Assembly (NCBI GenBank): GCA_038496445.1
Contig: JALMLS010000232.1
Coordinates: 124,001 to 188,000 of the forward strand
Direction of reading: 5' to 3'
DNA: 64,000 bases
Source of the DNA: Trichosphaerium sp. ATCC 40318
Taxonomy: Eukaryota; Protista; Tubulinea
Part shown: one piece after another, positions 8,691 through 57,707 of the stretch
How the letters are laid out: every line of letters begins with the position of its first letter
Position numbering within the stretch: the stretch's first letter is position 1
Program-made: the position numbers and the translations under genes
The notes under the pieces: model-generated
What the model saw: only the letters and a program-made list of their open reading frames with translations
Databases searched by the model: none
Told to the model about the DNA's origin: nothing

Positions 8691-8885
8691 AAAACAGAGA
8701 ACAAATAATAATAAAACAACACTTCAAAAAAAATAGTGTGCTTTCAACTTACCAAGAACAAGTTGGGAGTCCTAGTTACCCTCCAAGATACTGCAAGTAT
8801 AGGGTGTTGATATGCAGCTCAAAACAAAAAGATCCATGGAACCGAAGCTCCAAGATTAATTAGACAATTTAATAAGGAATTACTG

Positions 8886-9356
8886 ATGGATCTGGGAGGA
8901 GTACATACCATCAATCTTGAGAAGACTTCAGTGACAAATGAAGGTGTCAAAGCTATTGCAGGAGTACATACTATCAATCTTAACAACACTTCAGTGACAG
9001 ATGAAGGTGTCAAAGCTATTGCAGGAGTACATACTATTTCCCTTCGCAGCACTTCAGTAACTGATGAAGGTGTCAAAGCTCTTGCAGGAGTACATACTAT
9101 CAATCTTGACTACACTTCAGTGACAGATGAAGGTGTCAAAGCTATTGCAGGAGTACATACTATTAATCTTGGCAACACTTCAGTGACAGATGAAGGTGTC
9201 AAAGCTCTTGCAGGAGTACATACTATCAATCTTAACTACACTTCCGTGACAGATGAAAGCATCAAAGAACTTGTTGGTGCTCATAAAATTAGCGCTTGGG
9301 GTACAAATGGAGTAACAAATGAAGCTATCAGATCTTGCACACATAAAAATCGTTAA
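8886..9356 (+). CDS. Intronless leucine-rich repeat protein (21-aa repeats), possibly 5'-truncated
   Basis: Six near-identical GVHTINLxxTSVTDEGVKA(I/L)A units plus one degenerate unit. It is the same repeat as in the gene at 21686 but has no F-box N-terminus. Confidence 0.7.
   Translation: MDLGGVHTINLEKTSVTNEGVKAIAGVHTINLNNTSVTDEGVKAIAGVHTISLRSTSVTDEGVKALAGVHTINLDYTSVTDEGVKAIAGVHTINLGNTSVTDEGVKALAGVHTINLNYTSVTDESIKELVGAHKISAWGTNGVTNEAIRSCTHKNR
8898..9275 (+). repeat. 63-bp coding tandem repeat, 6 copies
   Basis: Unit GGAGTACATACTATCAATCTT-NNNNNN-ACTTCAGTGACAGATGAAGGTGTCAAAGCT(A/C)TTGCA is read directly from the sequence. Confidence 0.95.
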
Positions 9357-9761: not shown

Positions 9762-12700
9762 CTAAGCTATTGGCTTGGTTGATTTATCAATAAGGTAAAA
9801 TATAGACTTATATGATACACCACCAGCATGTAAACTGAGAGCCATTTCACATGTCCTACTTGAGGAATAACCTACAAAAAAAAATCAGTACAAACAATAA
9901 CATGTTGTTTTTTCGTGTTGAATCACTGACCTTGTAATGAGTTTGGATCAGTTGCTGTTCTCTTTAAGTGTGGTTCAAGTGTAGTCAAACCCTGTTTTGT
10001 AAGCTCTGGGAATAGTAATCCACGGTCACCAGCCATACCACAGCATGCAACTTGTGAATCAATAACACGCTTACTGCATAATGATGCAAGCGACATATGC
10101 ATTGCTTCATTTCCCATTTTCTTTCCTGAGCATGGTGTATGAATAGTAACTTCATCTTCAGTCTTCTCCCAAGACAGTCTGTCAACCAGGAAGTCGTTGG
10201 CAAACTGAACAGGGTCCACGATATTCAACTTTTTCTTCCCTTCCTAAAACATCAAAACATTAAAAAAAACAGAATCTAAATGAAGTGAATGACGTACAGG
10301 TACATGTGTAAGTGTATGTAAAGCGCAAGGGCTCATATCACTAAGGATAGGAATAGTACCACCTTCTGAGGCCTTATACATAGCATCATAAAACTCAGAT
10401 CCTTTGGTTTTTGTTGTATCAACAAACCCCTAAAAAGTTGTTAGAAAACAAGAAAGTACATGTAACTTCTTCAGTTTTTTTGTTCAAGCTCATCACTCTT
10501 TTGAGATTATAGCGCTTTACTGCTATTTGGGAAATATAGGGTGCATACCTTACTGTCAAATGCCATACCACAACATAAGTTATCTACATTATTTGGAATA
10601 ACAACATCAAAATTTGCTTTCTTTAATACATTGAATAATGTATTTTGTATAGGTTCAACTTGTGGTCCTTTTGCAGGTGATCCCATAAGCCTATTAGCAC
10701 ATCCGCTAAAGTAAACAACCTTCTTCTTATCAATAGAGGAAGAAGAGCTAGAAGGTTCACTTGTAGCTGCAGGAGAAGGTGAAGAAGCTTCCCTTGAGAA
10801 CGCCGCACGTGGCATCTGATTGTGCCATTCTGGTACAAAAGAAAACACTTTCCTTGCCATCTGAGACATTGATGTCATAGCAGAGTCTCCAATTACTGAT
10901 GATAACATATTTGCAGCATGTAAGCCTCCACGAAGTAAATGAGATACTGTGGAGAAATTATTAGCTATAAATCCAGCTTGCCACTTGTTGATGCTGCTTT
11001 GTTCTGTGCGTCTCATTTCTTTTACCAAGTTTCCGGTGTTGACTAAGATAGAAGTAAGCAATGAAACGTCTGCTCGCTGTTGGTGTATCAATTTAAAAAG
11101 AAGGGTACGTACTCTTAACTGGACACTTTGAAGCGCACATGCCAGTTGTGGCACATGTGGAATCGCCAAGGTAAGGCCAAGCTTTTTTAAATTCGTCTAA
11201 ACGCTCACTGTTGTTGCCTTCTGTTGATGCTGCTTCAAGGCGTGCCATTTCTCTTGTGACTGTGATACGTTGTCGAGGCGTGAGTGTCAATTCGCTAGTA
11301 CAGTGATTAGAAAAAATATAAAGCCAAGGAATTACTAACCGTGAAGGACAAACGCTTTCACAAAAACCGCATTCAATGCAGTTATCAATAATTGGATTAG
11401 CGGCAGGCATTGCCTTTGTATTCTTTCATATGTGTTAGTGACAATAACCAATAGATAGCCATTTATATGTACCTTAACATGAATAAGCGGATCATCATTC
11501 AAAATAACACCAGGGTTCAAAATACCTAAAACAAGTTTAGAATAAAAATTAAAAGGAGAAGAGTAACAAAACCTTGAGGATCAAACAACTTCTTTGTTTG
11601 TTGCATGACCTTGTACGCATCAGATCCCCATTCCATTTCTACGAATGGAGCCACATTTCTTCCAGTACCATGTTCAGCCTTACAAAAGGTGTCAGAGTAC
11701 CATCACATTAACATAAAGAATAGTTTACCTTAAGACTGCCTTCGTACTTATCAGCTACTGTATAACACAAATCATCCATCATATTCTTATATCTTTGTGT
11801 ATCTTTCTCATTTTGGAAAGATTGAGCGAACATAAGATGCAAATTACCATCTTTGGCATGACCAAAGATAATCGCATCATGATAGTTGTGTTTTGCAAAG
11901 ACTTCCTAAATTTTTTTCTTTAGTTGATAAGAACACGATAATTATCTCTTTACCTTCAGTTCCATAGTCATAGGAGCTAGGCGCTCAACATCACATGCAA
12001 CATCTTCAATGATACAGGATGTTGATACAGGCTTTGTAGCACCAGCAGTAGTCAATAGAGCTTTTCTGACATCCCACAACTTGTTGTATTCGGAAGGAAC
12101 ATCAGTAAATTCTAGACAAAAATAATTAGTGCTGAAAGACACTTGTATTTGTGAATAACGCACCAACGTCACGTATAGTCTTGAAACCTTTAAGTGTATT
12201 AGATACACCATCAATTTGTTTGCGTAGTGTAGCAGCAGAGTCAGCGCAAGTCTCAACAAGAAGAGAACAAACATTATCATCTAAGTTGCTTGGAACGCCT
12301 AATACGTTGTTAACAACTAACAGTTTTAAGGCGCCTTGCTTATCCCACGTACAAGAGTCTTTTACTGAGCGTAAACTGGCACTATCCATAAGCTCTACAG
12401 CATCTAATGAAGCGCCTTGTTTCAACATTTGAACTGCTTCACAAGCAGTTCCGATTGTATCAAAGAACAATAATGATGAAGCTTTATGTCGCTTCTCTTC
12501 TACTGTCTTTAAGATAACTTCGCCTATAGCCTTCATCAATACTTGTATTCAAGAGACTTCTTTACATACCTATGAATCCGAGGGTTCCTTCACTACCAAT
12601 CATAATATGCTTCAAGATTTCCAAAGGATCGTTGTAGTCAACAAAAGCATTTAAACTGTATCCGGTGGTATTTTTAATTTGATACTTCCGTTTAACCTTT

Positions 12701-14117
12701 GCAAGCAACTCTTTGTTTCCTCTTACTTTATCACGGACTTCAGCTAGTCCATCAAGAAGCTTGACATGAGATTTTTTGAATTCTGCAACACTCTTATCGC
12801 TAAAGAAAGACGAGAATATTAGCTTGATTCGTGAATGCCAAATTCAACGAAAAAAAAGAATCGTGTAGATCTTTTTGTAAATGTGGATTTTTAAATCAAG
12901 ACGTACGATTCTGTATCAAGTATTGTGCCTATAAATTGAAATATTAGATATTACGATTTTTGTAATACACGTGTTGCACAAAGTGGCAAACAGAAAAAAA
13001 GAAAAAAGCTAAAACATAAAAAAAAATACAAAAGGAAGTTCTTTAACATTCACGTACCATCTGCCAGTACAAGTTTTAACTCTTGTATTGTTTTATACGC
13101 ATTTGCTTCTGTACCACAACACATACCACTTGAATTATTAGCAGTGATACCTAATGAACCAATTAACAACCTTTTTCTTCAACATTCACTTAATTTTTAT
13201 AAAAGAATAAAATAACGCACCTCCAATCATACAAGAATCAATACTCGATGGATCTGGACCAATTTTCTTGTTGTACATTTTCAACGTCTGTAAAGAAGAA
13301 AAAAGTTAAGATTTTTATTGACATGACTGCGTCCTTGTGACCTAAGAGTTGTCGCAAATGCATTATTAAATTGCTAAGTATTATACGTACACGATTAGCA
13401 TGGCCACCAACAACTCCAGGCTCGAGTCTAACAGTGTCGGCATTTTTGCCAATTGGCGTACACTTGTTCCATTTGGAAGGTATTATACGAACAAGTACAG
13501 AGTCTGTTACGGCTTGGCCTAGTTTATCGTTTAGAAAAAATCGAGCAAACGGAAGAAATAAAGTCCGTTCGTATCAAGAAAACGCTCAAGTGACTATGCA
13601 AGCGATTTTTTAGTGCGTTTTTACGCATAGACGCTTCGAAAAATCGCAGACTTTGTGTTTGCAACTAGTTCTTTTTTTTATACCTGATAAGCTCGTTCCA
13701 GCGGCACGGAATGTGATTGGAGTGTGGTGAATGTTCCCAAGTTCCATGATACGCGATACTTGCTTCATATCAGCTACCTATACGTAAAAAGTTGGTATAT
13801 GCACTATTCAGGCGTAAACGTACGTTTACGACCATTTTCGGGACAAGCCTTTCATTAATGTTAGTGTCATCATTTGTCGCATTGTTAATTTACCTGTAGA
13901 AACTCGCATCTGTACTATAGGCGTATGTGCGAACCGCATCAGTTACAATTTGTTTTGTGGGAATAAAAGACGCTACTTCATTATAGAACGCTTGATAATT
14001 ATCTGGTAGCGCCTGTGTGCCTCTCGCTGTTACTGTGGCTTTATTGCGATTAAATGAGCGAGTTTTAACACGTTGTGTATTACGAAGATGCACAGCAGCG
14101 CGCGATAACGTGTGCAT
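9762..14117 (-). CDS. FAD-binding + Fe-S cluster D-lactate/glycolate dehydrogenase (fused GlcD/GlcF type), probable mitochondrial presequence
   Basis: Motifs include AYSTDASFYR, TFRAAGTSLSGQA, GPDPSSIDSC, IFGHAKDGNLH, KAEHGTGRNVAPF, MNPGVILNDD, CIECGFCESVCPS, CATTGMCASKCP and the CCG domains (CCGMAFDSK, CCGMAGDRG). The N-terminus is Arg-rich and lacks acidic residues. Confidence 0.92.
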
Positions 14118-14388
14118 ATTAGCTACGGTGCCAAAAGCTCACAATATGCGTGTCAGGTAGACTATTAAAGACCACTACTCTAAAACCATCCATAGCGGGT
14201 CGACTATCTTATCATATAGATTCTCACACGTTGTAGTGATTCTAAAGTCCATCTTGATTGTTTTTATCGCAAAATGACGTTCATTGTAGAAAAAAAGCGA
14301 GTTTTCTGCCGTTTTGAACGTCACTTTATTTTAGTCACCTATTTTCGACAGATATCTTATTAATAACTGCCTTCGCAACGCTTCTTCA

Positions 14389-16747
14389 ATGGCACGCACA
14401 AAACAAACAGCACGTAGGAGCACTGGCGGTAAAGCACCACGCAAAACTAACCAAGCAACACACTTCTTTAAGAATGTTGCTCCAAAGCTGAGACAACAAG
14501 GGCGCACTCAACAACAAGTAGAAGAGGTAAGCGAGTTTCTTCATTAGGCGATTTAAATAGCATTTCTCTTATTTTGAGTATAGATGGCGCCTGTCGAAGT
14601 AAAGTTTGATGTGTCACCTGAAACTTCTTTTTTTGCTCATTTCTTTGAAACTGGTTCTGAGGAAAATAAAGACTTTGCCCCTAGATATGCTGGTAAAGTT
14701 AAAAATCTCTTCAGTAATCTTTATCTTATTGTTACTATGTAGTTGCGAGTGCTTGTGATCCAATATCTGGAAAAGAAGAGAATTGGCTGTCAGTTTATTT
14801 CAACTCAAAATACGACGGAGACGGCATTAAAACCCACAAAAGACCTATTCTGAACCTTGTTGTATGCTTGGATATCTCAGGTAGTATGTGCTGTAATTTT
14901 GAAGGAGAGGAAAATAAAAGTAAGATACAAGTAGCCAAGGTACACCAACAACTCTTTCCTCCATTTTTCTTAGTTTTTTTTTTTAGGATTGCCTGCTCTC
15001 GTTGATTGAAAGACTTAACCCTAACGATTCCTTTGGGTACAGCATTGGTTTCTTTTTCGAGCGACTTTAGTTAATATTTATTAATAGGCTGGTTCTGTTT
15101 AATGAAAGCACAAGCGTTGTTCAAAAATTACAGCGTTGGTCTAAAATTAACAAAACTAAACTTAAACAAAAAATAAGATGTTTGCGTGCTAATGGAGGAA
15201 CTTGTATTTGTCCAGGTTTGTGTTTTATTGTTTGCTATCCCAAGATTCAAAGTTAACATGTTTATTAGCTATGGAAGCTGCTACAGAATTATATAAAGAC
15301 TTTGAGGAAGTACCAAACAGCTCAAATCGTGTTTTTTGTTTGACAGGTACAAACAGTCATTTCAATTGTAGCTTAAGCTCTTTGTAGATATGGAAGTAGA
15401 TCGTTCTGACGGGGACAAATTTTCTAAAGTTGTAGCTAAGAATGCAGAGAACGCAATGTGGTCCACAATAACTGGTAAACAGCCAAAGAATTCTTTGACG
15501 ATTCTAACACTTTACTTAAGGTATCGGATTAGACTTAACTTCAAATGTCATAGAAGAAGTTTCCAAGACTCCAGGATGTAACTACAGTAACGTAAGGAAT
15601 ACAAAAAACTTTCAGGTACATACTACATACTTGTCTTTATAACAAGAGTAACACGAGATCGTAGGAAATCGTTACAAAAGAATTTGATTTCATGGTTACA
15701 CCAATAGCTTTCTCTATTAATGTAGCACTTGAGGGTGACTTTGAGATTGCAAAAGGTACCCAATACAGGGGTTTTTTATAGTAACTCACTCTTTAAAGGT
15801 TACGGAAGTTATGAATTTCGTAAATTGAAGAAGGGCGATGACATAACTTTCTCTTCTCATTTTCCAAGCGCCAAAAATTCTAAAGGTGAAACACGTTCAG
15901 GTGTCTTTCTGTTCAAGCTCGCTCAGAAGAAAAGATCAAGAGGAAGAAACTTTCAAATAACGTACACTACCTAAAGGACTGTAATGACCAATAACTCACT
16001 GCTTTTTCATAGTACTTCTTGGCAAAACAAGAACGGAATCCCTTTCGATGAAGAACAAACACTGACAATTCCAGAGCCTGAACACTTTGATGACATGGGT
16101 ATCCGAAAGGCTATACTCTTGACAAACTACAGTGTATTCTTGAGAGAATATATTGAAGTTAGAGGTGGAACAGGAAATACAGTAAAACGTTTCACAGCAC
16201 TTCGTAAGGCTTTCCCTAAAATGTTCAAATACTTTTGCGAGTAAGTACAACATAGTCTCCTTGTATCATCTTGTCTCATGAGTTTTTTAAACTAGGTCAG
16301 CAAAGGCAATAGGTGATAAGAGTCTTCATATTGAGATATCTCATCTTAAGACCCAAAGTACTGGTGATGATATACCGATAGAGTCTGATCTACTAAACTT
16401 CGATTTGGTAAAAGAAATAACACAAGCGGGAGACAATATGGACATTGACACGGAGCCAAAAAGGTACAGCGTTACTTATACTATATTATATTAATACCTT
16501 CTGTTACAGTACAAAGAGAAAAGCGAATGACAATGCATCTCCAAGACCTGCAAAGAAGCAAAAGACATCGATTAAACTTGAAAACATAGTCGGATTTGAG
16601 GAACTTGACAACATACCTTATCGGACTCTCCAGGAGCACGCTAAGAATAATGGTATAAGAGCAAACCTTAAAGCTAAAAAACTACGGGATATGCTAAAAG
16701 CAAAATGGAGCTTGGATGGACTCAAAGCGATTCCAGATCTCGAATAA
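14389..16747 (+). CDS. Histone H3-tail / vWA (MIDAS) / SAP-like fusion protein
   Basis: Exon 1 (14389-14526) is MARTKQTARRSTGGKAPRKTNQ...VEE. A phase-0 intron (GTAAGC...TATAG) leads to exon 2 at 14584. Later exons give RPILNLVVCLDISGSM, ANGGT, NRVFCLTD, GIGLD, TRSGVFLFKL and GIRKAILL. The last exon has a basic NLS and LDNIPYRTLQEHAKNNGIRANLKAKKLRDMLK. Confidence 0.85.
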
Positions 16748-16817
16748 GGAGCAACTCGACAACTCCAATTGTATTTTAATAAAAAGTTGTTAAGTTTAGA
16801 TACACTTTGAGTACCTT

Positions 16818-21165: not shown

Positions 21166-21685
21166 TACTTGTTAAATAACAGTGCGACAAATGCTGGCTA
21201 AACAAAAAACAGTGGAAGAAAAAAATGGAACTTGTCACATACGCTTTTTACAAAATACTCTAGATCCTGTAGTATAAAATCCACAATTATGAAATAATGC
21301 CATTGTTGTGGCTCCACAACACTGAGGATATCATTTTATGCCATCCAGCATTACTTAGGGTTCACACGATTTGCCCCATTTCATACGCTACACGTGATAA
21401 TATTACTGTAACTTTAACTACAATAAAAGCTATTTGTGTAGCGGATTCAGATCCATGAGATGGTTAAAAATTTAGCACAATCATGAGCACTTTTTTTATC
21501 CATGGAATCTAATAAAGTCGTTTGATTTCAACACAGAAAGAGTAGTAATATTACCAGCACAACAAGTCATGGCCAATCATTCAGCGGCAAATATTGAGAG
21601 GTACCACACAACAGTTGCCTAAACGCTGCTTTGTTCTAAAATAAAGTCTTTCAGTGCTAGTGCTACCCAACAGAGTATTTTGGAG

Positions 21686-22888
21686 ATGCCTGTAGAGATT
21701 CTATCGAAAATTCTAAGATTTACTAAAAAATCGCGATTTGCGGCTTGTCAAACATGCCGTTTCTTCTCTTCTATCGTTCATGACATTATTGGATACCACA
21801 GTATTAAAATAACAACAAAAAATCAAGCACGAGAGGTTGTGAAACATAATGGTATTCTTCGAAACACAACAATCAGATTAATCAATCAGTCTCGTTATTT
21901 TTCTTCAGACGTCATAAAACTATTTGCTGGTGTTCATTCAATCAATCTTTATGGCATGCTTGTAAAAGCCGGTATTAAAGCACTTTCTGGAGTTCACTAC
22001 ATTAACTTATCTCACACTCGAGTAACAGACAAAGGTGTAAAAGCGCTTGCTGGTGTTCATACTATATACCTCGCCTGGACTCAGGTAACAGATGAGGGTG
22101 CACGATCACTTGCTGGCGTTCATACTATCAATCTAAGCAGCACTTCAGTAACAGATGAAGGCGTAAAACCACTTGCTGGCGTTCACACTATACATCTTGG
22201 CTGGACTAAGGTAACAGATGAAGGTGTACGAGCACTTGCTGGCGTTCATACTATTTATCTTGAGAACACCCAAGTAACAGATGAGGGAATTAAAGCGCTT
22301 AGTGGTGTTCATACTATAAACCTCCCAGACACTAAAGTTACAGATAAGGGTATTAAAGCACTCACAGGAGTACATAACATAAACCTTAATGGTACTATTG
22401 TAACAGATAAAGGTGTAAAAGCACTTGCAGGAGTTCATACTATAAGGCTTTCTCGTACTAAAGTCACAGATGAAGGTATAAGAGCACTTGTTGGTGTACA
22501 TGAGATTTCCCTTGACAATACTTCAGTTACAGATGATGGTGTAAAAGCGCTTGTGGGTGTTCATACTATTAACCTCGCATTTACTTCAATCACAGACAAT
22601 GGTGTAAAAGCACTACAAGGTGTTCACACCATCAGCCTTATTTCCACTTCAGTCACAGATGATGGTGTAAGAGCTCTAGCGGGTGTTCATACTATTAACC
22701 TCACATGTACTTCAGTCACAGACAATGGTGTAAAAGCACTACAAGGTGTTCACTCCATTAGCCTCATTTGCACTTCAGTTACAGATGATGGTGTAAAAGC
22801 TCTAGCTGGTGTTCATACAATACATGTAGGAGGCTCTTTGGTAACAACAGAATGTATTAAATTACTCTCTCGTGTTCCCAACCATTAA
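21686..22888 (+). CDS. Intronless F-box/LRR-repeat protein
   Basis: The start MPVEILSKILRF...ACQTCRFFSSIV is F-box-like. It is followed by 15 GVHxIxLxxTxVTDxGVKAL repeats in one open frame. Confidence 0.88.
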   Translation: MPVEILSKILRFTKKSRFAACQTCRFFSSIVHDIIGYHSIKITTKNQAREVVKHNGILRNTTIRLINQSRYFSSDVIKLFAGVHSINLYGMLVKAGIKALSGVHYINLSHTRVTDKGVKALAGVHTIYLAWTQVTDEGARSLAGVHTINLSSTSVTDEGVKPLAGVHTIHLGWTKVTDEGVRALAGVHTIYLENTQVTDEGIKALSGVHTINLPDTKVTDKGIKALTGVHNINLNGTIVTDKGVKALAGVHTIRLSRTKVTDEGIRALVGVHEISLDNTSVTDDGVKALVGVHTINLAFTSITDNGVKALQGVHTISLISTSVTDDGVRALAGVHTINLTCTSVTDNGVKALQGVHSISLICTSVTDDGVKALAGVHTIHVGGSLVTTECIKLLSRVPNH

Positions 22889-23252: not shown

Positions 23253-25706
23253 ATGCTACCAATATGGGCTTTTAGTGTAATGTTATTTTTGGGTTGTAAC
23301 GTACTCGCACAAACAAACCAAAGTAAGCGTCTCGTAAAACAATTTTAATTTAACTTATTTAGCCGTTGAGGCTTCGCTTGAACATGCTTGTACAAACGAT
23401 TTGGGTTGTTACATGGGACTACAAGATGTGGTTATAATTGTAACGCGAATAAATTTAGTGGTGAAAAATAGAGTAGAACTACGAGCAGACAAAGAACTGA
23501 TAGCAAGTGTGTTTTTAGACGATATATTTTTACACGTCCATTTTCATCCCTTTTCATAGTTTTTAGATACGACGTGTACTGATTTAGAGTTACCAAGTAT
23601 CACGTGCGATGGGTTACCTATATTACTCGTTGGTAACGGACATGACCTGACAATCAGAGGTCTCAATATTAAATGTCCGACACAGGTTATAGCTGTCGAA
23701 AAGCTTAAACTAGAGCAAGTATTTTGTTTTGTCAAAATATTGAAAGTCTGACACTTCTTGTTCAGGTCGTGTATCTTCAATTCGATCAATACTGACACAT
23801 TTTTACCTTTACCGCTTCTCAATTTGGCTGCGTACATAGTCTGACGCTTTTAAAACGCTTACATAGTTTAGTACCGAAGTAATAATTGCAAAAACAGTTT
23901 TTATTGGAAACACAATTGCGGGAGACCTACTTCGATTCGAGAACAGCAATGAAGCTGCTACTGTTACCAATTGTAAATTCGAAAACAACACAATTACACA
24001 CAGTACTATGGACTGTGTACCTATTAGCGTAATCCGCAAACGATACGGAACAGTACGTACAATCACGTGATATTTTTTAACCAAATTGACTTTAGCTTGC
24101 TATCAATGGCTCCCTTTTTCAGAATAATGCTGTCTATTCAAATGGCTGTACGTAGGATGTGACATTGTCAGCTAATACTTGAAAGGCCCTCCGATTGGAC
24201 TTATCAATGCCTTTGATGTAGATTCTGGGATAATTGATAGCACCGCTTTTGTGGCAAATACAATTCACTCTACTTACCCTGGTACACTTTTGTGAACGAG
24301 AAGAAGTTGGATTGAAGGTAATAAATGAATAGGATGCGCAGTCAATATCATGGCTTATAATGAAGCAAGAATACAATCATCTGTTTTTTCGAAGAACATC
24401 TGTGGTTCAAGGTACGTTCATAACCGTTTTGTTGCCTTATACTAACATCTGTAGCATCTTTTCTCTGAGGTACATCAAACAATTTGTTATCTTTCACTAA
24501 CGTTGGTACTGGCAGTGCGCAAGATGCCAATATTGAGTACGTAGCATAGAGTAATTTATTTTCTTCTTACTTTGTTTCATAGAAACGTCTACATGGAAGG
24601 TATGTGCTGATGATGCTACTTATCTAAACATATATGTAGATGGTTCAATTCACTGCAACTCCGGTGATATACCTTTTCCAGATGGTGCGTTTCTTCCAAT
24701 ATTATAAGTACCGTTCACATTATATACAGCTACCCTCATTATCAAATTTAATTGTGCTATTGGACCATTTCCAATTCCTCTTTGTAGTGTATCAGAGGCC
24801 ACATGTTGTAATAGTACGTTATTCAACATCTTATTTATTATAAAAAATCAAAGTAGCTACTTTTGCGTTTGAGAACTATTTTTATGACCACCCGTGTGGT
24901 GGAGCGATGACAACAATCAAAGAATCAGATGAGGTAAATGGTATGTCTTTAATTCCGAACATGCAAGCGTTAACCACAAATAAGATTGTACCACAACACC
25001 ATTGGGCCCTGTACCAATTGTCGGAGGTCCTACTGAAGTACCACCTGTAGATGTACATCCATCTACAGAAGAATGTATCTTTTGTGAATCTATTTGTAGT
25101 ATCATAGCCAATTGTAGTTCAGACATAGTTATCGTGGGCGATGTTGTGATTGATAGAGATACCAACATCGATGGAGATTTCACAAATAACGGGAAAGTAA
25201 CTCTTGTGTTGAGAGACAACACAAAGATAAAAGTCGCTGGTAATTAAATTTATCTCTTTTCATTGCCAGATCCACTGACTAGTTGTAAAAAAAGGATGTA
25301 TTGTTCTTGGTAACTTCACTGTTGATGTATCAAATATTGATACGTCATCATCCGATCGTATTCCTATCATTGAAAGTACATGTGTTAATGGAACAGTGGT
25401 TGTCGTTGGGGCTGATGAGTGTACATCAACTTCTCAAGAACATGATGGAAACAGGTAAGTCTATCAGTTAAGTACTCAAACTGAGAACGTGTTTATTTAG
25501 ATTCCACTTGATATTTAACACTGATACATGTGGTTCTTCTAATTTGGGAATAATTCTCGGTGTTGTTCTTGGACTTGTTTTCATAGTAAGTATCATAAAT
25601 CGAATTTATTCTTATTTACATTTAGATTGCAGTCGCGGGTTTAGTTATTGTCTTGTTGGTTCCTTCTTTACGAGAGGAGGTACTACCTTATGCAAAAAAT
25701 AGATAA
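23253..25706 (+). CDS. Type I surface glycoprotein, tandem array copy 1 (subfamily A)
   Basis: Signal peptide MLPIWAFSVMLFLGCNVLA, beta-helix-like xNCKFENNT/FVANT turns, a Pro-rich stalk, a Cys-rich CIFCESICSIIANCSS domain, TM segment LGIILGVVLGLVFI.., and tail VPSLREEVLPY. Confidence 0.8.
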
Positions 25707-26303
25707 ACAAGCACAAGAGAATTCACGGTAATGATGCAGCAGCTGTGAAACCAACATAAAATAATATCAATAAATCGAAACATAGAAGAACATTCATTTC
25801 TGACTGCTTTATTTATAATTAGAAATTTTGCGACTTTTGTCACCTTTGTTTTGTTGACAGATAATACTAAGTTAAGTACCATTGCAAACTGTAATCTGGT
25901 ACTTGAAAACAAGTTCTAACATGCAATTGTCAGCGATACACCAATGCAATAGTGCCGTGAGTACATGGTATGAGCAATTACCAGCAGTGACTAACTAGTT
26001 CACAGTGTCTAAAGGAATCGTTGTTAGTACTTACGTCGACATGTTTATCATTGAATATGTGGATTGGTAATAAATAATTTTGTAAGTAAATGATATGTAC
26101 CTACAGTATCAACCAAATCTATTTTTTAGGATATGGCGGTTAGTGAGGTTGAGCATTACACATGCTGTTAAAAAATGAAAGAAAAAAAAGCAGAAACAAG
26201 CACGTGACGATCAAAAGTACACACAAAGAACAGTACTTGAACATGGCAATAAGAACGTATCAGTTAATCTAAGCTTGCCAAGCCACTTCTTTGAATAAAC
26301 AGT

Positions 26304-27590
26304 TTACTTTTTAATCTCATCATCAACATACATGAGATCTTGGGCAAGTCTTCCATTGCTGTGCCATTCTTTGTACACACCATTTTTTTTACCTTCCAGG
26401 TAATTGCATTGAACTCTTAATTGTCCGTTTATATACCATTCTCTATACTTTCCATTCTCTTCATCATTATTGTATGAGATATTAACACTAAGTTGTCCAT
26501 TATTGTGCCATCTTTTCAATTCTCCGTGATGTTTACCTTCAACAAACCAACACTGACAACCAAGTTGTCCATCATCATACCACTCACTATACTTTCCATT
26601 TTGTTTATCATTTATGAATGAGGTATGAACATGAAGTTGTCCATTTTGGTACCACCTTTTCAATTCTCCATGTCTTTTACCATCGATGTAAGTGTACTTG
26701 AATTTTAATTGCCCATCATCATACCATTCACAAAACTTTCCATTCTCCTTATCATTAACATATGAGATACGAAGACAAAGTTGTCCATTCTTGTGCCACA
26801 ATTTATACTCACCACAGATCTTGTCATTAATGCAATTGTGCTGGTATTTTAATTGTCCATTATTATACCACTCTTTATTCTCGCCATTCTTCTTGTCATC
26901 AACATACCAAGTTTGCTTCTCAAGTTGCCCATTGTTAAACCACTGCCTCAATTCACCGTTCTTCTTATCGTCAACAAACATTTTTTGTACCTCAAGTTGT
27001 CCATTATCATGCCACTTTTTAAACTCACCATTTAGTTTACCATTAATAAACCAATGGTGACGGTTAATCTGGCCATTAATATACCATGCCTTATACTCAC
27101 CTTCAATTCTACCATCAACATTCCATAGATGAATCTTCAGTTGTCCGTTTTCATACCACACTTTTAACTCGCCATCATTGTTGCCATTAGCAACCCAAGT
27201 TTGCATTTCAAGTTGTCCATTATCATACCACTCTTTGTATTCACCATTAATTATATCATCAACACACCAACTTTGCAGCATAAGCTGTCCATTTTCATGC
27301 CACCATCTACACTCACCATTTTTCTTACCACCAACAAAATTGTATTTTTTCTTTAACTGCCCACTGCCAGTATACCACTCCATCCAAATACCATGTTTCT
27401 CAAGTTTTGTATTGTAGAGTGTGTTGATTGCAGCACGTTTTGATAGTTTATGGAATTTGAAGAATACTTCCTCATCAAATGTGCATAGATAGCGTTGAAT
27501 CTCGCAAGGGATATCCAACAAATAAGTATATCCAGAACTCTGAGAAGAGCGTGATCCAGGCTTTGATGGTATCAGCGCTTGTTCCAGCAT
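26304..27590 (-). CDS. Intronless MORN-variant (YwqK-like) repeat protein with F-box-like N-terminus
   Basis: LLDIPCEIQRYLCTF is followed by 15 24-aa G(E/K)xxxW(Y/H)xNGQL units in a single open frame. Confidence 0.88.
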   Translation of the reverse strand: MLEQALIPSKPGSRSSQSSGYTYLLDIPCEIQRYLCTFDEEVFFKFHKLSKRAAINTLYNTKLEKHGIWMEWYTGSGQLKKKYNFVGGKKNGECRWWHENGQLMLQSWCVDDIINGEYKEWYDNGQLEMQTWVANGNNDGELKVWYENGQLKIHLWNVDGRIEGEYKAWYINGQINRHHWFINGKLNGEFKKWHDNGQLEVQKMFVDDKKNGELRQWFNNGQLEKQTWYVDDKKNGENKEWYNNGQLKYQHNCINDKICGEYKLWHKNGQLCLRISYVNDKENGKFCEWYDDGQLKFKYTYIDGKRHGELKRWYQNGQLHVHTSFINDKQNGKYSEWYDDGQLGCQCWFVEGKHHGELKRWHNNGQLSVNISYNNDEENGKYREWYINGQLRVQCNYLEGKKNGVYKEWHSNGRLAQDLMYVDDEIKK

Positions 27591-28570
27591 ATCTATCAAA
27601 ACTCATTACCTTTCGAAATTGAACATAAAAAACAAAAATGAGCCTCAAAATGACACGATCAAATAAAATTCAAAGAAATGAGCCATGGACGCCTCGTTGG
27701 ACGAACGGGTGTTAAATAACAAAAAATCTCAGGATATTGTTGCTTGTTCAATTGAACACGTGGATACTGCTGGGATCGACGGAAGATACAATAATTTAAA
27801 TCTGTGTCAAAAAAACTTCAAACAACTTTTAAAAACCAACCAACCACTAAATTATGACGTACCTTGCGCAAATTAAGATTAACAATGTTAACAGCGGTTG
27901 ATAAATGAAGAGTGGCCAAAGAAAATTGGAAAAGTTCAGTCACCCGGAGCAGGTTTAAGTCCTCTGACAATTAAGTATTGCAGTTACATTTGATTTTATT
28001 TTTTCTACTACTTTACACTACCGACGCAAGCGCAAGTATTATCATAAGGGATAAAGCCTTCAAGCCTTGTTGTGGCAATTATTCAAGTTGTTTCCGCAAA
28101 GTCAATTTTTCAGAGTCATAAAACACTCTACAAACCACGCACTGCGCACAGGACTGCTTTATATTAAATTTTCTTTAAAAAAAGATTACAATTCGTGTCA
28201 AAGCACAGTACTACATATGTACGCAAGAGATTGAAGCCTACAAAGACTTGACGCTAGTTTCTGAAAAACTTTAAGCAAAACGTTTGTCACGTGATCCTTA
28301 TAGTACCGTTACGCCTGAATTCTGTTATTCAGCGTTAATAAACCGAGTGAGTTGGCTTTTATTTATCAATAACCGCACCTGATCTGAAACGCATTAAACA
28401 AGTGAAAAAACGGATTAGTTTGCTGTAGTATTGTGGTTGCTTCTCAAGGCGTGGATTCTATTAAATCCCTTACCTTTTTTTGTGACGTTCCATAAAAACA
28501 TGTGAACAAACAGCTACTTCATACTACAATTGACTTTGTGTTTTTGTATTTTGGAAAACAGGAGCCAGAA

Positions 28571-31126
28571 ATGCTACCAATATGGGCTTTTAGTGTAATG
28601 TTATTTTTGGGTTGTAACGTACTCGCACAAACAAACCGAAGTACGCGCCTTGTACACCAAATTTAATTTAACTTTATTTAGCTGTTGAGACTTCGCTTGA
28701 ACATGCTTGTACAAACGATTTGGCTTGTTACATGAGACTACAAGAGCCAGTCATAATTGTAACACGAATAAATTTAGTGGTGAAAAATACATTAACACTA
28801 CAAGGAGACAAAGAACTGATAGCAAGTGCGTTTTATGGATACATTCCATTTCATCCCTTTTCATAGTTTTTAGATACGACGTGTACTGATTTAGAGTTAC
28901 CAAGTATCACGTGCGATGGGGTTACTACAATAATAATCATTGGGGACAAGCATGACCTGACAATCAGAGGTCTCGATATTAAATGTCCGATACAGGTAGA
29001 TGTCGAAAAGCTTAAACTAGAGTAAGTCTTTTTTTATAGTGCTAAGAAAAACCAAGTGGAAGTGTTGTTAACGTCAAGGAAAAAAGGACTTAAACCATTC
29101 GTACTGTTTAAGCCGCTTCCGTCCTACAACGATACTAGTCCTATTGTAGATGAATGTTGCAAAGTCTGACACTTCTTGTTCAGGTCGTGTATCTTTAATT
29201 CAATCAACACTTCACCATTTATGACTCTACCGCTTCTCAAGCTTGATGCGTACATTTACATGTTAGCTCTTTAAAATGCTTATTTAGTTTAGTACCGAAG
29301 TTATATTAGACAAAGTACTTTTTATCGGGAACACAATATTCGGAGATCTTGTTCGATTAGAGAACAGCAATGAAGCTGCTACTGTTACCAACTGTAAATT
29401 CGAAAACAACACCATCACTCACAGTACTATGAACTGTGAGCGTATTAGCATAATCCGCAAATTTTATGGAATAGTACGTTACAATCACGTGATGTTGTTT
29501 AACCAATTGCATTTAGCTTGACATAGACGGGTCACTTTTTCAAAATAATGTTGTTGATGCAAATGACTGTATGCATACAGCATGTATAATTGTCTACTTA
29601 TTTCGAAACAAGGCTCCTTAGATCGAATTATTAATGCTTTTGATATTGATTCCATGACTATTAATAGCACAGCTTTTGTGGCAAATACAATTTACTCTAC
29701 TATTTCCCCTGGTAATTTTGTGACAAGACCCTAGATCGAAAGTAATAAACGGATAGGACCTTGTGTAATCAATGTCGACATTAATTTAGAAGCGAGAATA
29801 CTGTCATCTATTTTTGCGAACAATGACTGTGCTGGTTCAAGGTACGTTCATAATCGTTGTTTGTTACTAACATCTTTAGCACGTTTTCTCTGAGGTACAT
29901 CAAACCATTCTTTATCTATCACTACTAACGTTGGTACTGCCAGTGCGCAAGATGCCAATATTGAGTACGTTAATATAATAATGTACTACTTGCCTTACTT
30001 TGTTTCATAGAAACGTGTACATGGGTGGTATGTGTTGATTGATGACTTTACCTAAAATTATGTATTTAGGTGGTACATTTCAATGCAACAGTAATACTGG
30101 ATTGGCAACACAGGGTAAGCAAATTACAATATGTACCACGGCATATTCACAGTTGATATAGCTACATTTATTACCAAATTTAATTGTGATGGACCGATTC
30201 CTCCTTGTAATATAGGCGACATATGTTGTAATGGTACGGAATTTGATTATCTGCCACACTTTACAAACCAACTAGCTACTTTTGTGTTTGAGAACTATTT
30301 TTATGACCACCCCTGTGGTGGAGCGATGACCACGATTAAAGAACCAGATGAGGTCGATGGTATGTTTTTAATTCTAAATATGCAAGCGTTAACCACAAAT
30401 AAGGCTGTAACACAACACCATTGAGCCTTGTACCAATTGCCGAAGGTCCTACTGAAGTTCCACCTGTAGATGAAATACATCCATCTACAAAAGAATGTAT
30501 CTTTTGTGAATCTATTTGTAGTATCGTAGCCAATTGTAGTTCAGACATAGTTATCGTGGATGATGTTGTGATTGATAGGGAGATCATTATCGATGGAGAT
30601 TTCACAAATAACGGGAAAGTGACTCTTGTTTTGATAGACAACATAAAGGTCAAAGTCGCTGGTAATTAAATCTATCTCTTTTCATTGCCAGGTCCACTGA
30701 CTAGTTGTAAAAAGGATGTATTGTTCTTGGTAACTTCACTGTTGATGTATCAAATATTGATACGTCATCATCTGATCGTATCCCTATTATTGAAAGTACA
30801 TGTGTCAATGGAACAGTGGTTGTCGTTGGCGCTGATGAGTGTACATCAACTTCTCAAGAACATGATGGAAACAGGTAAGTCTAGCAGTTAAGTACTAAAA
30901 CTGAGAACGTGTTTATTTAGATACCACTTGATCTTTAACACTGATACATGTGGTTCTTCTAATATGGGAATAATTCTCGGTGTTGTTCTTGGACTTGCTT
31001 TCATAGTAAGTATCATAAATCGAATTTATTCTCAAGTACATTTAGATTGTAGTTGCTGCTTTAGTTATTGTCTTGTTGGTTCCTTCTTTACGAGAGAAGG
31101 TACTACCTTATTCAAGAAATAGATAA
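28571..31126 (+). CDS. Type I surface glycoprotein, tandem array copy 2 (subfamily A)
   Basis: It has the same exon/intron architecture as copies 1 and 3 and high nucleotide similarity to them. Confidence 0.8.
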
Positions 31127-31609
31127 ACAAGCACAAGAGTATTCACGGTAATGATGCCAACTGTGAAACCAAAATAAAATACATCTCAATAAATAGAATT
31201 CATTTATGACTGCTTTATTCATTATTAGAAAACTCACCTTGTTTTTTTGACAGATAATACTAAGTACAGAAGCAAACTACAATCTGGTACTTGAAAACAA
31301 GTTTCTAAACATGCAATCATCAGCGATACACCAATGTAACAGTGCTGTGAGTACATGGTATGAGCAATTACCAGCAGTGACTAACTAGTTCACAGTGTCT
31401 AAAGGAATCGTTGCTAGTACTTACTACTCGTCCACATGTTTATCAATTGCTAAATAATATATTTAAGTAAATGTACTTGTAGTATCAACCAAATCTTTTT
31501 TTAAGAAAATGGTGTTTAGTGAGGTTGACGCATGCCAGAAACAAGCACGTGATACTTTGGAGATCAAAAGTACTCACACAAAGAACAGTACTTGGACATG
31601 GAAATATAA

Positions 31610-31918
31610 AGAGATGTTGTGATTATCTAGATATCTAGATATCTAGTTTTGAGAAAAAAAAAAAAAGTAGATATCTAGATATCTAGATATTTTCGCGGGT
31701 AAAAAAAATATCTAGATATCTAGATATCTGGTTTTTAGTATGTCTTAAAATGGTGTGCTCTACGATACCCTGAAATATATCTAGTTTTTATTGACCCCTA
31801 AAAACTAGATATCTAGATATTTTTTTTACCCGCGAAAATATCTAGATATCTAGATATCTACTTTTTTTTTTTTTCTCAAAACTAGATATCTAGATATCTA
31901 GATAATCACAACATCTCT
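31610..31918. mobile_element. 309-bp MITE/foldback element with perfect 114-bp terminal inverted repeats and apparent TAA target-site duplication
   Basis: 31610-31723 is the exact reverse complement of 31805-31918, including the A13 and A8 tracts. TAA lies at 31607-31609 and 31919-31921. The element is absent from the paralogous flank near 26240-26262. Confidence 0.9.
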
Positions 31919-31979
31919 TAAGAATGTATCGGTCAATGTAAGATTGAAGGAATAGCCCAACATTCATGCTAGTGCTTCT

Positions 31980-32090
31980 TTTTAATCTCATCATCAACGT
32001 ACATAGATCTTGAACAAGTTTCCCATTGCTGTGCTCGAAAAGTTAACTTCGCGAAAGTATAAAGAATGGTATATAATGGGAAATTACACG
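31980..32090 (-). pseudogene. Relic of the MORN-repeat gene (3' end only, plus an inverted fragment)
   Basis: 31980-32033 matches 26309-26363. 32053-32090 is a MORN unit in the opposite orientation. Homology then resumes with the spacer near 28105. Confidence 0.75.
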
Positions 32091-32346
32091 GACAAATTTT
32101 TCAGAGTCATAAAACAATCGACAAACCTCTTTGCTCACAGGACTGCTTTACATGAAATTTTCTTCGAAAAACATGATCAGTCAAAGCACAGCACTACATA
32201 TGTACGCAAGAGGTTCAGCCTACAAAGACTTGACGCTAGTTTCTGAAAAACTTCAAGCACGTGATGCTTATAATACCGTTAGAGTCCTGAACTCTGGGCC
32301 TGTTATTCAGCGTTAGTAAAGCGATTGAGTTGGCTTTTACTAAACA

Positions 32347-32609
32347 GAGTTTCTTAATTTTGGCATCGAACAAAATCTAATTTAACCTATCCCACGCTAA
32401 TCACGTGGAGTGTAAAGCTACATCCGTGATACTCAACAGCCAATAGAACCAGAATTGACAGCCTACAGGTTTACTTTAGCTAACCTTTTCATGCTGTGAG
32501 GTGAGAGTTTTATGGCTGACAAACGCAGTGTAAATTACTCAATAGTGTGACGTATACGGTCATTAATATCGCCATAATGGGAACTGTTCTCGTACAAATT
32601 AAGAAGCTC
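32347..32609. mobile_element. Putative older MITE with imperfect TIRs
   Basis: This segment is absent from the paralogous spacer (~28360-28372). Its ends are GAGTTTCTTAATTT... and ...AAATTAAGAAGCTC, a 13/14 inverted match. No clear TSD is visible. Confidence 0.5.
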
Positions 32610-32891
32610 ACGGAAGCAATCGTACCTGATGTAACGCATTAAACAAGTGAAAAAAAGGAAGAGTAGTTTGCTGTCTAGTATTGTGCTTGCTTCTCAAGAC
32701 GTGGAGTCTATTGGATCCCAAATTTTTTTTGTGATACGACTCTTCCATGCACCACTTTAAAATCTACTAAGCTAGCTTTTTTTGGTTCTCACCCTTCCCT
32801 AAAAACTTGTGAACAAACAGCTACTTCATACTACAATTGACTTTGTGTTTTTGTATTTCGTACCAAAGTCATGGCGCAAAGAGAACTGAAC

Positions 32892-35308
32892 ATGTTACCA
32901 ATATGGGCTTTTACCGTATTGTTATGGTTGGGTTGTAGCGTACTCGCACAAACAAACCGAAGTACGCGTCTTGTACACCAAATTTAATTTAACTTTATTT
33001 AGCTGTTGAGGCTTCGCTTGAACATGCTTGTACAAACGATTTGGCTTGTTACATGAGACTACTAGATACGGTTACAATTGTAACACGAATAAATTTAGTG
33101 GTGAAAAATACAATAACGCTACAAAGAGACAAAGAACTGATAGCAAGTGTGTTTTATGGAGACACATTCCACCCCTTTTCATAGTTTTTAGATACGACAT
33201 GTACTGATTTAAAGCTACCAAGTATCACGTGCGATGGGGTTCCTACAATAACAATCATTGGAAACAAGCATGACCTGGCAATCAGAGGTCTCGATATTAA
33301 ATGTCCAATACAGGTTGTAGTCGAAAAGCTTAAACTAGAGTAAGTCGTTTTTTCTTAACTTTCGAAAGTTGAAAACGTTGACAGTTGGTTTTAAAGGTCG
33401 TGTATCTTCAATTCAATCAACACTTCACCACATGTGACTCTACCACTTCTCAAGCTTGATGCGTACATTTACATGTTAGCTTTAAAACGCTTATTTAGTT
33501 TAGTACCGAAGTTATATTAGACAAAGTACTTTTTATCGGGAACACAATATTCGGAGATCTAGTTCGATTAGAGAACAGCAATGATGCAACTGTTACCAAC
33601 TGTAAATTCGAAAACAACACTATTGCACACAATAATACGAATTGTGTGCCTATTAGCGTTATCCAGCAACAATACGGAACAGTACGTTACAATCACGTGA
33701 TGTTATTTAACCAAATTGCATTTAGCTTGACATAGATGGGTCACTTTTTCAAAATAATGTTGTTGATGCAAACGGCTGTATGCAGCATGTACAATTGTCT
33801 ACTTATTTCGAATAGGCTCCTCTGATCGAATTATCAATGCTTTTGATGTTGATACCATGACTATTGATAGCACAGCTTTTGTGGCAAATACAATTCACTC
33901 TACTATTTCTTCCGGTAAATTTTATGACAAGAACTTTGATCAAAGAGTAATGAATGGATAGGGCCATGCATAATCAAAGTTGAGAGTAGCAACCAAGCTA
34001 GAATACAATCGTCTTTTTTTTCGAAAAACTACTGTGCTGGTTCAACGTACATTCATGATCGTTGTTTGTTACTAACATCTTTAGCACGTTTTCTCTGAGG
34101 TACATCAAACCATTACTCGTCTTTTATTACTAACATTGGTACTGGAACAGTGCACCATTTTCCAATATAGAGTAAGTAACATTTATTAATAAATTGTTTC
34201 CTTACTTTGTTTCATAGAAACGTCTACAACGGTATGTGTTGACTATGTACTTGCCTAAATTATATTTAGATGGTTCATATCTTTGCAACGATGGCAGTGC
34301 ATTGCCAACACAGGGTAAGCTAATTACAATATGAACCGCGGCATATTCACAGTTGATATAGCTACATTTATTACCAAATTTAATTGTGATGGACCTATTC
34401 CTCCTTGTAATACAGGCGACATATGTTGTAATGGTACGGAATTTGACTATCTACCACACTTTACAAAACCAACTAGCTACTTTTGTGTTTGAGAACTATT
34501 TTTACGACCACCCCTGTGGTGGAGCGATGACCACAATCAAAGAATCAGATGAGGCCGATGGTATGTCTTTAATTCTAAACATGCAAGCGTTAACCACAAA
34601 CAAGATTGTACCACAACACCATTGAGCCCTGTACCAGAAGTACCACCTGTAGATGAAATACATCCATCTACAAAAGAATGTATCTTTTGTGAATCTATTT
34701 GTAGTATCATAGCCAATTGTAGTTCAGACATAGTTATCGTGGGCGATGTTGTGATTGATAGGGAGGTCACTATCGATGGAGATTTTACAAACAACGGGAA
34801 AGTAACTCTTGTTTTGATAGACAACATAAAGGTCAAAGTAGCCGGTAATTAAATCTCTTTTCATTGCCAAGTACACTGACTAGTTGTAAAAAGGATGTAT
34901 TGTTCTTGGTAACTTCACTGTTGATGTATCAAATATTGATACGTCATCATCTGATCGTATCCCTATTATTGAAAGTACATGTGTTAATGGAACAGTCATT
35001 GTCGTTGGGGCTGATGAGTGTACATCAACTTCTCAAGAACATGATGGAAACAGGTAAGTCTATCAGTTCAGTACTCAAACTGAGAACGTCTTTATTTAGA
35101 TACCACTTGATCTTTAACACTGATACATGTGGTTCTTCTAATATGGGAATAATTCTCGGTGTTGTTCTTGGACTTGCTTTCATAGTAAGTATCATAAATC
35201 AACTTTATTCTCAAGTACATTTAGATTGTAGTTGCGGCTTTAGTTATTATCTTGTTGGTTCCTTCTTTACGAGAGAAGGTATTACCTTATGCAAAAAGAA
35301 ATAGATAA
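32892..35308 (+). CDS. Type I surface glycoprotein, tandem array copy 3 (subfamily A)
   Basis: Paralog of copies 1 and 2, with signal peptide MLPIWAFTVLLWLGCSVLA and tail VPSLREKVLPY. Confidence 0.8.
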
Positions 35309-35623
35309 ACAAGCACAAGTATTCACGGTAATGATGCAGTTGTGAAACCAAAATAAACATTTCTCAAAACATTCATTTGTGACTGCCGTATTCACGAAAT
35401 AGGTGCAAAAACTCACGGTTATGAAACTAAATAAATACTGCTTTCAACTATGGTTTAATCCCTCAAATCACTTTTGAAATATCTTTTTGGCGTTTTGACT
35501 AGATCACGTGTGCAGAGATCATTTATTAAACAACACCCCAAGAAAACAAGTACAATCTGCGAAGCTATTAAGTAAGACCATCATTGACTTATATAGTCCA
35601 AATTTCAGCAAAACACGTGAAAG

Positions 35624-38247: not shown

Positions 38248-38695
38248 ATATCTAAGCATGTACTTAATAAAACACATTTGTTGCAAGATTTCCTAATGAC
38301 CACCATTTCTAAGAATCTTTTTCGGTTTTGTACTAATATGTTAAAAATCTCTACCTTTGAACGTACATCAACATAAGATTGTATTATTGGTTGCTTCTGT
38401 ACGTGAGGAGGTACTACCTTTTTCAGGAAATAGGTGAAAAAAAAAACAGAGTACTCGCGGTAATGAAACTAAATAAATTGCTTTTAGTTGTGGTTAAGCC
38501 CACTATTTTTTGACTATTTGAGTTGATACGTGTGTGGAATATCCATTTAACGGACATACCCAAGGATATAAATACAACAAGCTAAGTATAACCCTCATCA
38601 CACCCCAAGAAAATAAGTACAATCTGCGAAGCTATTAAGTAAGACCATCATTGACTTAAAATAGTCCAAATTTCAGAAAGCAAAACACGTGAAAG

Positions 38696-44005: not shown

Positions 44006-44208
44006 TGCTTGGATAATTAAATAAATAAATCAATAAATTGGCTGTACAATTTGCTGAAAGCGCTTTAAGCAATGCGAAGGCGCAACACTAATCACCGAAC
44101 CTAGTCTACAATATTTGCTGTTTTAACGTCTTAATTTCAAGGCTTAGAATGAAAAAGTAGCGAAATTTAAGTGCGATTTTTCACGCTGTTTGTTCCACGA
44201 GCAGTGCA

Positions 44209-57275: not shown

Positions 57276-57707
57276 AAAGAAAGAAGAAAAGAAAAAGAAA
57301 AGCCCACCAACGTTGGACTGCCCGACCCCCTTTACCTGTTTTAGTAGATAAAAAATTAAATATCAGCAGAAAAAAAGAAGATTAATTGTCAATAAATCTT
57401 GTTCTGCTCCACATAGTGATGACTTTAATTTGAATCTTGTATGGTAACTTGCCCGTGTATTGATGCCTTGCTAATACTAGTATAAACTCGGTGCAACACT
57501 CAGAACTTGTGCATTCCGTGAATGTTCAGTCACTGTCTGGTGGACTATGTGAACGATCTAGTCAGCTGTGTACTGCCTACGTGGAGCTGACTCTACAAAA
57601 CAATAAGTTTACACTCTACCGCAGGTTTAGACAGGTTGTCGTGTAGTAAATAGTGGTGGAGCACTTAAGTGCAGTTTGAACGGTTTTTTTAAACAAACTG
57701 CTACGCA

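Follow-up and report, generated by a model that had tools for sequence, protein, structure and literature searches.

The locus described here raises the question of why a protein that is not a histone should begin with a nearly complete copy of the histone H3 tail. It lies in a stretch of 64,000 nucleotides from Trichosphaerium sp. ATCC 40318 (the window). The original prediction, made from the letters alone, was that the gene is a host-encoded histone mimic in which the first 18 residues of H3 are joined to a vWA-domain protein with an intact metal-ion site. This reading, of a selected H3-tail mimic carried by a MIDAS vWA protein, is supported by splicing, by the existence of tailed orthologs and by purifying selection, as set out below.

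A spliced gene joining an H3 tail to a vWA core

The gene comprises 13 exons on the forward strand (14389..16747) that, after splicing, form an open frame without internal stops for a protein of 589 aa and 66.5 kDa (Table 1). All 12 introns are GT-AG introns of 41-57 nt, and all are skipped in spliced public contigs, which span about 14350-16797; intron 3 is skipped in one run only, and each of the others in two to four runs. The first joint, 14526^14584, which splices exon 1 to exon 2, is present in contigs of all four runs examined (three samples, three studies), with short-side overlaps of 104 and 109 letters in runs X1 and X4, as the original prediction had anticipated. A contig from X1 starts at 14350, crosses the ATG and continues into exon 2, and in a contig from X4 position 14397 is joined to 14940, connecting the tail to the exon that encodes DISGS. 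The runs are not recorded as RNA, and we infer their mRNA origin from the missing introns; the joints are seen in contigs, which are silent on the start of transcription. The first ATG is at 14389, the closest one upstream (14274) lies in another frame, and the contig that begins at 14350 covers the start codon. Ten coding differences were found between runs, seven synonymous and three replacement, with none in exon 1 (some at low depth). At a Vermamoeba-like locus (L014), a phase-0 intron lies, as judged by eye, no more than one codon from the place of intron 1. The fusion of the H3 tail to the vWA protein is a real spliced gene.

Table 1. Features of the tailed vWA gene, in positions of the window.
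Feature	Position	Strand	Remarks
Exons 1-13	14389-14526, 14584-14692, 14743-14939, 14987-15036, 15088-15215, 15269-15346, 15388-15474, 15521-15615, 15665-15755, 15799-15961, 16013-16240, 16296-16463, 16510-16747	+	
Met and copy of histone H3 residues 1-18	14389..14445	+	Arg at position 9
Variable linker, rest of exon 1 (aa 20-46)	14446..14526	+	without histone fold
Intron 1	14527..14583	+	57 nt, phase 0; links tail exon to core; joint in 4/4 runs
vWA / beta-sandwich / helical core (aa 56-425)	14611..16151	+	introns included
MIDAS DxSxS (D126, S128, S130)	14871..14885	+	
Other MIDAS residues: T203	15200-15202	+	
Other MIDAS residues: D234		+	split by intron 6
Bipartite basic stretch, putative NLS (aa 513-529)	16514..16564	+	from sequence
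SAP/HeH-like helix-extension-helix (about aa 540-579)	16595..16714	+	predicted nucleic-acid binding; no RING after

Seventeen of the 18 tail residues are identical to H3 peptides of PDB structures, and the sole mismatch is at position 9, which bears out the predicted K9R match. In a search of PDB sequences, a 25-mer H3 peptide was matched with E 3.5e-6, and the number of chance matches of at least 17/18 expected over all six reading frames of the window is 1.5e-16. No histone fold follows the tail in the spliced protein, which runs on into the vWA core, nor was one found in a Pfam scan of the exons; together with the intact MIDAS, the spliced frame confirms the predicted arrangement of a tail without a fold leading into a MIDAS (DISGS) vWA protein. 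The same Pfam scan, made on 12 single exons that are each too short for VWA, gave no match above cutoff, and 41 of the 41 relatives that were scanned match a VWA family. The core (aa 56-425) is homologous to that of the haloarchaeal VWA proteins WP_247010685.1 and WP_262342754.1 (31% identity, E 1e-49), which also have an intact MIDAS. The five MIDAS residues are invariant in 110/110 tailed and 26/26 untailed cores (136/136, including that of the window). An alignment of the exons onto the haloarchaeal proteins was poor and was set aside.

A predicted model of one relative (P0018, pLDDT 84) contains a vWA domain, a beta-sandwich and a helical core, and its fold resembles those of ArnB (fold match E 2e-17), ITIH1 and the Sec23/24 core, with a TM score of about 0.5 by target length. 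Residues 1-42 of the model are disordered (pLDDT below 50), and the window copy's N-terminal arm is probably disordered as well.

The original account missed two features, namely the RING or U-box with which members of the family usually end and the NLS-like and SAP-like end of this copy. The basic stretch at aa 513-529 is one that we take to be a bipartite NLS, from its likeness to the nucleoplasmin-type pattern; a loose basic motif is found past aa 430 in 71/106 tailed relatives, a count made without a chance control. The segment at aa 540-579 is common to bdelloid-type members and is modelled as a helix-extension-helix (pLDDT 76). Its comparison with Rho-N, Hcc-1, Ku70 and FAN1 SAP domains gives Z scores of 5.3-7.0, which are below 8 and serve as a lead, and SAP/HeH domains dominate its structure matches at similarly lead-level scores (E above 3 in Foldseek, Z up to 7.0 in VIA, 0.87 in Atlas). 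The SAP-like end has no match in Pfam, and a search of PDB sequences with the C-terminus gave chance matches only, such as epsin and Cor1. Family-built profiles detect neither a RING nor a U-box in the window's copy. A hidden RING exon was considered and rejected: the 600 bases around and past the stop encode no CxxC, and the contigs stop by 16797 without a further joint.

Tailed and untailed members of the family

Relatives were collected by a search blind to the tail, in which HMMER was used with exon 3 alone, giving 140 representatives after clustering at 50%; with the same exon, a word-based search yielded no homolog (four candidates). A repeat protein of 2940 aa (P0001) was excluded from all counts, leaving 139. 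Proteins were scored as tailed if at least 7 of the 18 residues were present at the start, or at least 12 of 18 nearby. By this measure 38/139 begin with an H3 tail and 46/139 begin otherwise, and the remaining 55/139 begin in or near the core, so that they are uninformative on the tail. With the addition of two profile searches, whose profiles include tails and one of which listed 120 of its 425 matches, 127/266 relatives are tailed; among these, the tail matches at 18/18 positions in 46 and at 17/18 in 40, and the cores are 23-51% identical to the window's core. The tail is therefore kept in orthologs, and the suggestion in the original prediction that it might be absent from them fails.

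The tailed relatives carry labels of amoebae (Cavostelium, Rhizamoeba, Protostelium, Vermamoeba, Paramoeba and a Physarum-style transcript id), of sponges (Sycon, Corticium, Oscarella) and bdelloid rotifers (Adineta, Rotaria), of a choanoflagellate (Acanthoecidae) and the Mucoromycota Endogone and Jimgerdemannia, and, in the rhizarian and algal range, of Amorphochlora, Paulinella, Nonionella and Cymbomonas; source labels of transcriptomes can reflect contaminants. A Chrysochromulina protein, the model of which lacks a start, belongs to one tailed cluster as well. Unlike sequences known by transcriptome labels only, those of the sponges and of Adineta vaga are placed in contigs 4-98 Mb long. 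Each named species has one or two copies in the searches made, and human, yeast, plant, fly and Dictyostelium are absent from the named matches listed (120 of 425 in one search, with few rows named).

For a phylogeny based on the core only, 58 of 156 cores were used, comprising 32 tailed cores chosen for spread and all 26 untailed ones. In this unrooted tree, whose bootstrap was not fully settled, a 100/100 branch separates the 32 tailed cores and two untailed ones from 24 untailed cores, both eukaryote-type and prokaryotic, and a FastTree of all 156 rows agrees with the split. Of the two untailed proteins on the tailed side, one (P0057) has the last part of the tail as its start and seems to be truncated. 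The 95/90 set that contains the window's protein also includes Rhizamoeba, Vermamoeba, Physarum-style, foraminiferan and bdelloid rows, a placement in keeping with an amoebozoan host.

The bdelloid-type copies (L003-L011) are intronless and nested among amoebozoan rows, as would be expected if rotifers had acquired them by horizontal transfer. In a second bdelloid paralog (P0184, P0187) the tail is eroded. Metagenome loci, found with an alignment free of the tail, include intronless copies in which tail, core, SAP-like motif and RING lie in one ORF.

The amount of histone sequence varies among members, some of which carry H3 to about residue 28 or 41, while most stop at residue 18-26 without an H4 piece. 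An additional H3 alphaN motif follows the H3 tip in P0049, P0090 and P0127, and an H4-tail piece is present in P0078, P0090 and P0127; in P0090, residues 56-74 match an H4K20 peptide (E 1.2e-4) and are followed by an acidic stretch.

A RING or U-box was detected with family-built profiles in 74/107 tailed proteins of at least 450 aa, as against 2/23 untailed ones, and Pfam agrees on these ligase domains (PF13920, PF04564, PF00097). The RING occurs mostly in the amoeba-rotifer branch and the U-box mostly in the algal branch, and this use of different domains in different branches suggests that a ligase role has been selected. No ligase domain was detected in 33/107 long tailed members (12/26 within the tail-blind set), at least one of which is a profile miss; the window's copy and the three sponge copies are among the proteins with neither domain.

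The prokaryotic VWA relatives differ from the tailed family in having no tail and mostly hydrophobic leaders, and they lie across the 100/100 branch. Of the untailed proteins, 20/23 of prokaryote type have a hydrophobic leader, and 18/24 with short leaders have Gly2 or an early Cys, residues that may be lipidation sites. These sequences suggest that address tags occupy the N-terminal slot of the family. Proteins of an untailed eukaryote-type sister branch (P0038, P0054, P0092, P0109, P0283 and others), whose named members are Pyxidicula and Anaeramoeba, start with Gly2 or early Cys, which are possible lipid anchors. Another protein, P0098, has an N-terminal ubiquitin domain. The haloarchaeal genes (L001:1316-8153, L002:1302-8138) stand between an AAA ATPase gene and genes for HEAT-repeat and ADP-ribosylglycohydrolase proteins, in a cluster that is conserved and unstudied.

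Conservation of the tail and variation at position 9

Conservation within the protein is highest in the tail. Across five genomic copies, pN is 0.000 and dS 0.74 in codons 2-18 (pooled over 10 non-independent pairs); past the tail, w is 0.27 in the next 20 codons and then 0.136, and it is 0.155 in the core. These five were taken from 13 loci, the rest being duplicates, fragments, one locus with an eroded tail and intron-bearing loci. The window's tail differs from those of the genomic loci at 8-12 synonymous codons and by one replacement. Such strong purifying selection is at odds with an unconstrained recent fragment, the other way in which the original prediction might have failed. Both an assembly chimera and an H3 pseudogene fragment are ruled out by the spliced contigs, the tailed orthologs and the selection on the tail.

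Among 30 well-kept tails of the tail-blind set, R2, T3, Q5, T6, A7, R8, G12 and G13 are kept in all 30, which is more than a charge signal requires; K14 is kept in 27/30, and K4 is replaced by Arg in 3/30. K9 is kept in 18/30 of these tails, compared with 460/480 for the other sites among positions 1-17 (Fisher p 1.7e-8, ignoring kinship), and its substitutes in intact tails are R, V, L, Q, C, A, M and F. In a larger and more redundant set K9 is kept in 72/78, similarly to T11, K14 and P16, so that only in the divergent, tail-blind set does it vary more than any other of positions 1-17. Arg itself is found in 2/30 and 5/78 of the tails. These counts indicate that K9R is one of several tolerated states rather than the design of the family, and the defining role first given to it does not hold; as a trait of the whole family it was rejected, being a minority state.

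In some branches the tail is eroded to 7-11/18. The nearest tree neighbours of the window's protein, P0003 and P0189, retain 9-10/18, which indicates that some branches can do without a full tail.

Known H3 mimics and the possible role of the tail

Several known proteins resemble parts of this architecture. The H3 tail mimics VRK1, BCL11B, MEF2C and PCLAF (H3TMs; Chen et al. 2021, PMC8166343) are likewise host proteins, with an iM-Z-R-X-K motif at the true N-terminus of a disordered arm, and the window's protein conforms to this sequence rule. That paper reports in vitro binding of H3-mimic peptides to PHD and Tudor domains; its search covered the human proteome only, and direct in vivo evidence of K4me3 was lacking for the human mimics. 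H3TMs share a four-residue motif, whereas distant eukaryotes of the present family retain 17-18 of 18 residues, and the scaffold is a vWA protein with a RING or U-box. PAF15/PCLAF is similar in having an extended H3-like N-terminus tied to ubiquitin signalling, and this N-terminus is described as binding the UHRF1 PHD as tightly as H3 (PMC7060239). PAF15 is a small, disordered, PCNA-binding substrate of UHRF1; the tailed family in contrast has a folded scaffold of 500-900 aa, usually with a ligase domain of its own. Exon 1 scores 12.2 bits (E 0.33) against Pfam PAF, under the cutoff of 23.4. By analogy, the window's protein would work like PAF15 in principle, while being a member of neither H3 nor PAF15. 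To our knowledge no H3 tail is known for the plant RGLG ligases, and none of these appeared among the named matches of the family searches. They are alike in combining a vWA domain with a RING (PMC12647413 and PMC10504590). Influenza NS1 is a further non-histone protein whose H3 tail sequence interacts with the H3K4 machinery (PMC12937675), but that mimic is short, C-terminal and viral, whereas the tail of the present family is long, N-terminal, cellular and old. We found no prior description of the tailed vWA family in the literature searched, which was mostly without subscription papers and without supplements, where a comparative-genomics table could list the architecture; it goes unmentioned in the accessible parts of PMC12937675, PMC3417536 and PMC8015243.

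The reading that we favour, to which we give an even chance, is that of a broad eukaryotic family in which a selected H3 tail on a metal-binding vWA scaffold acts as nucleosome-free bait for readers and writers of H3, which are ubiquitylated by the RING or U-box of most members. Removal of the Met would expose Ala1, the basic stretch at aa 513-529 would carry the protein into the nucleus, and the SAP-like end would anchor it on DNA. The tail would then be bound by H3 readers and writers and would probably be modified as H3 is, while the vWA core may bind a further partner and the C-terminal RING or U-box of most members would ubiquitylate what has been captured. The ligase-less copy in the window could act as a non-catalytic adaptor or competitor, or be paired with a ligase in trans, and the relaxed position 9 could keep the protein off the K9-methyl/HP1 pathway. 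We propose more tentatively, as somewhat short of probable, a history in which a prokaryotic vWA scaffold exchanged its membrane leader for an H3 tail once, early in eukaryotes, gained a RING or U-box, and came to capture and ubiquitylate the H3 readers and writers of the cell or of an invader; it would have survived in amoebae, algae, early fungi, choanoflagellates and sponges and been transferred to bdelloids, and the window's copy would be a ligase-less regulator.

Other readings account for some of these observations. The tail might have no function, its likeness to H3 being restored time and again by gene conversion or re-fusion from histone genes, and the variable histone lengths and H4 pieces of some members do suggest repeated copying. 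We regard this as highly improbable: identity stops near codon 19 in distant members, the tail is confined to one side of the 100/100 branch, many different residues occupy position 9 within intact tails, and related genomic copies differ at 5-10 synonymous codons and no replacement codon in codons 2-18. Alternatively, the tail could act as a sensor of histone supply, binding chaperones or importins as new histone does and coupling them to ubiquitin turnover. The members with longer H3, an alphaN motif or an H4 piece (P0090, P0127, P0078) fit such a role, as soluble H3-H4 is the form that chaperones meet. Most histone chaperones require the histone fold, however, and most members, the window's copy included, end at residue 18-26 without an H4 piece, so we consider a supply sensor improbable.

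We think it slightly less probable again that the tail is a nuclear import signal and nothing else. Residues 1-28 of H3 are an NLS for Kap123 that acts via K14 and a second lysine and is unharmed by K9Q (PMC5677370), K14 is largely kept here, and address tags apparently occupy the N-terminal slot of other branches. The same source finds little specificity past the two lysines, yet T3, Q5, T6 and A7 do not vary among the well-kept tails of this family, and the window's copy has a separate basic stretch. A role in defence, in which histone-modifying or histone-binding proteins from intracellular bacteria or giant viruses are caught by the tail, after which the ligase eliminates them or sets off an alarm, seems to us unlikely, if less so than an import signal or a supply sensor. 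The patchy spread of the family, rich in phagotrophs, sponges and bdelloids, and the intronless bdelloid copies nested among amoebozoan ones, as if transferred, are in its favour. So too is a bacterial SET effector active in amoebae that grips H3 at T3-A7 and G13-R17 (PMC10653858), close to the conserved footprint of the tail, where 9-11 is relaxed. Yet host readers account for the same footprint, rapid evolution is lacking (core w 0.155), and with so few copies per named species there are no expansions.

If our favoured reading of the tail as bait is correct, cells maintain a pool of H3 tails outside nucleosomes through which chromatin readers can be handled. The cellular H3 mimics known so far have few residues in common with H3, and here a near-complete tail is almost fixed across several eukaryotic supergroups, animals included; H3 N-terminal peptides or antibody signals in carrier organisms may thus derive from non-histones. 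The question is testable in culturable carriers (Adineta vaga, Vermamoeba vermiformis and the source of the Physarum-labelled transcript) and through natural variants, such as changes of K9, added H4 pieces and ligase-less copies.

The original prediction had also pointed to an AAA+ ATPase as a frequent partner of a vWA protein. None was found among the 24 of 86 long window ORFs that were scanned, so a local partner gene was rejected, and AAA genes adjoin the haloarchaeal relatives only. The window contains no Rfam match or tRNA. The studied gene is head to head, at a distance of about 250 bases, with an intron-rich gene on the reverse strand (9926-14138) for an FAD-linked oxidase with a 4Fe-4S domain (Pfam FAD-oxidase_C, Fer4), which is presumably D-lactate dehydrogenase-like. 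Long single-ORF genes with LRR, F-box-LRR and MORN_2 repeats (8811-9353, 21623-22885, 26307-27602) stand amid intron-rich genes; such repeat genes are common in amoebae and their giant viruses. Tandem similar copies of one gene occupy about 24900-40900 (shared ORFs at 24920, 30339, 34540, 37504 and 40546), and two of their ORFs that were scanned had no Pfam match. Further along are genes for a G-patch/GCFC protein (42335-44029, reverse strand), a RasGEF (55352-56867, forward strand) and a protein with a weak match to NPHP3_N, which is NACHT-like (57693-60271, forward strand).
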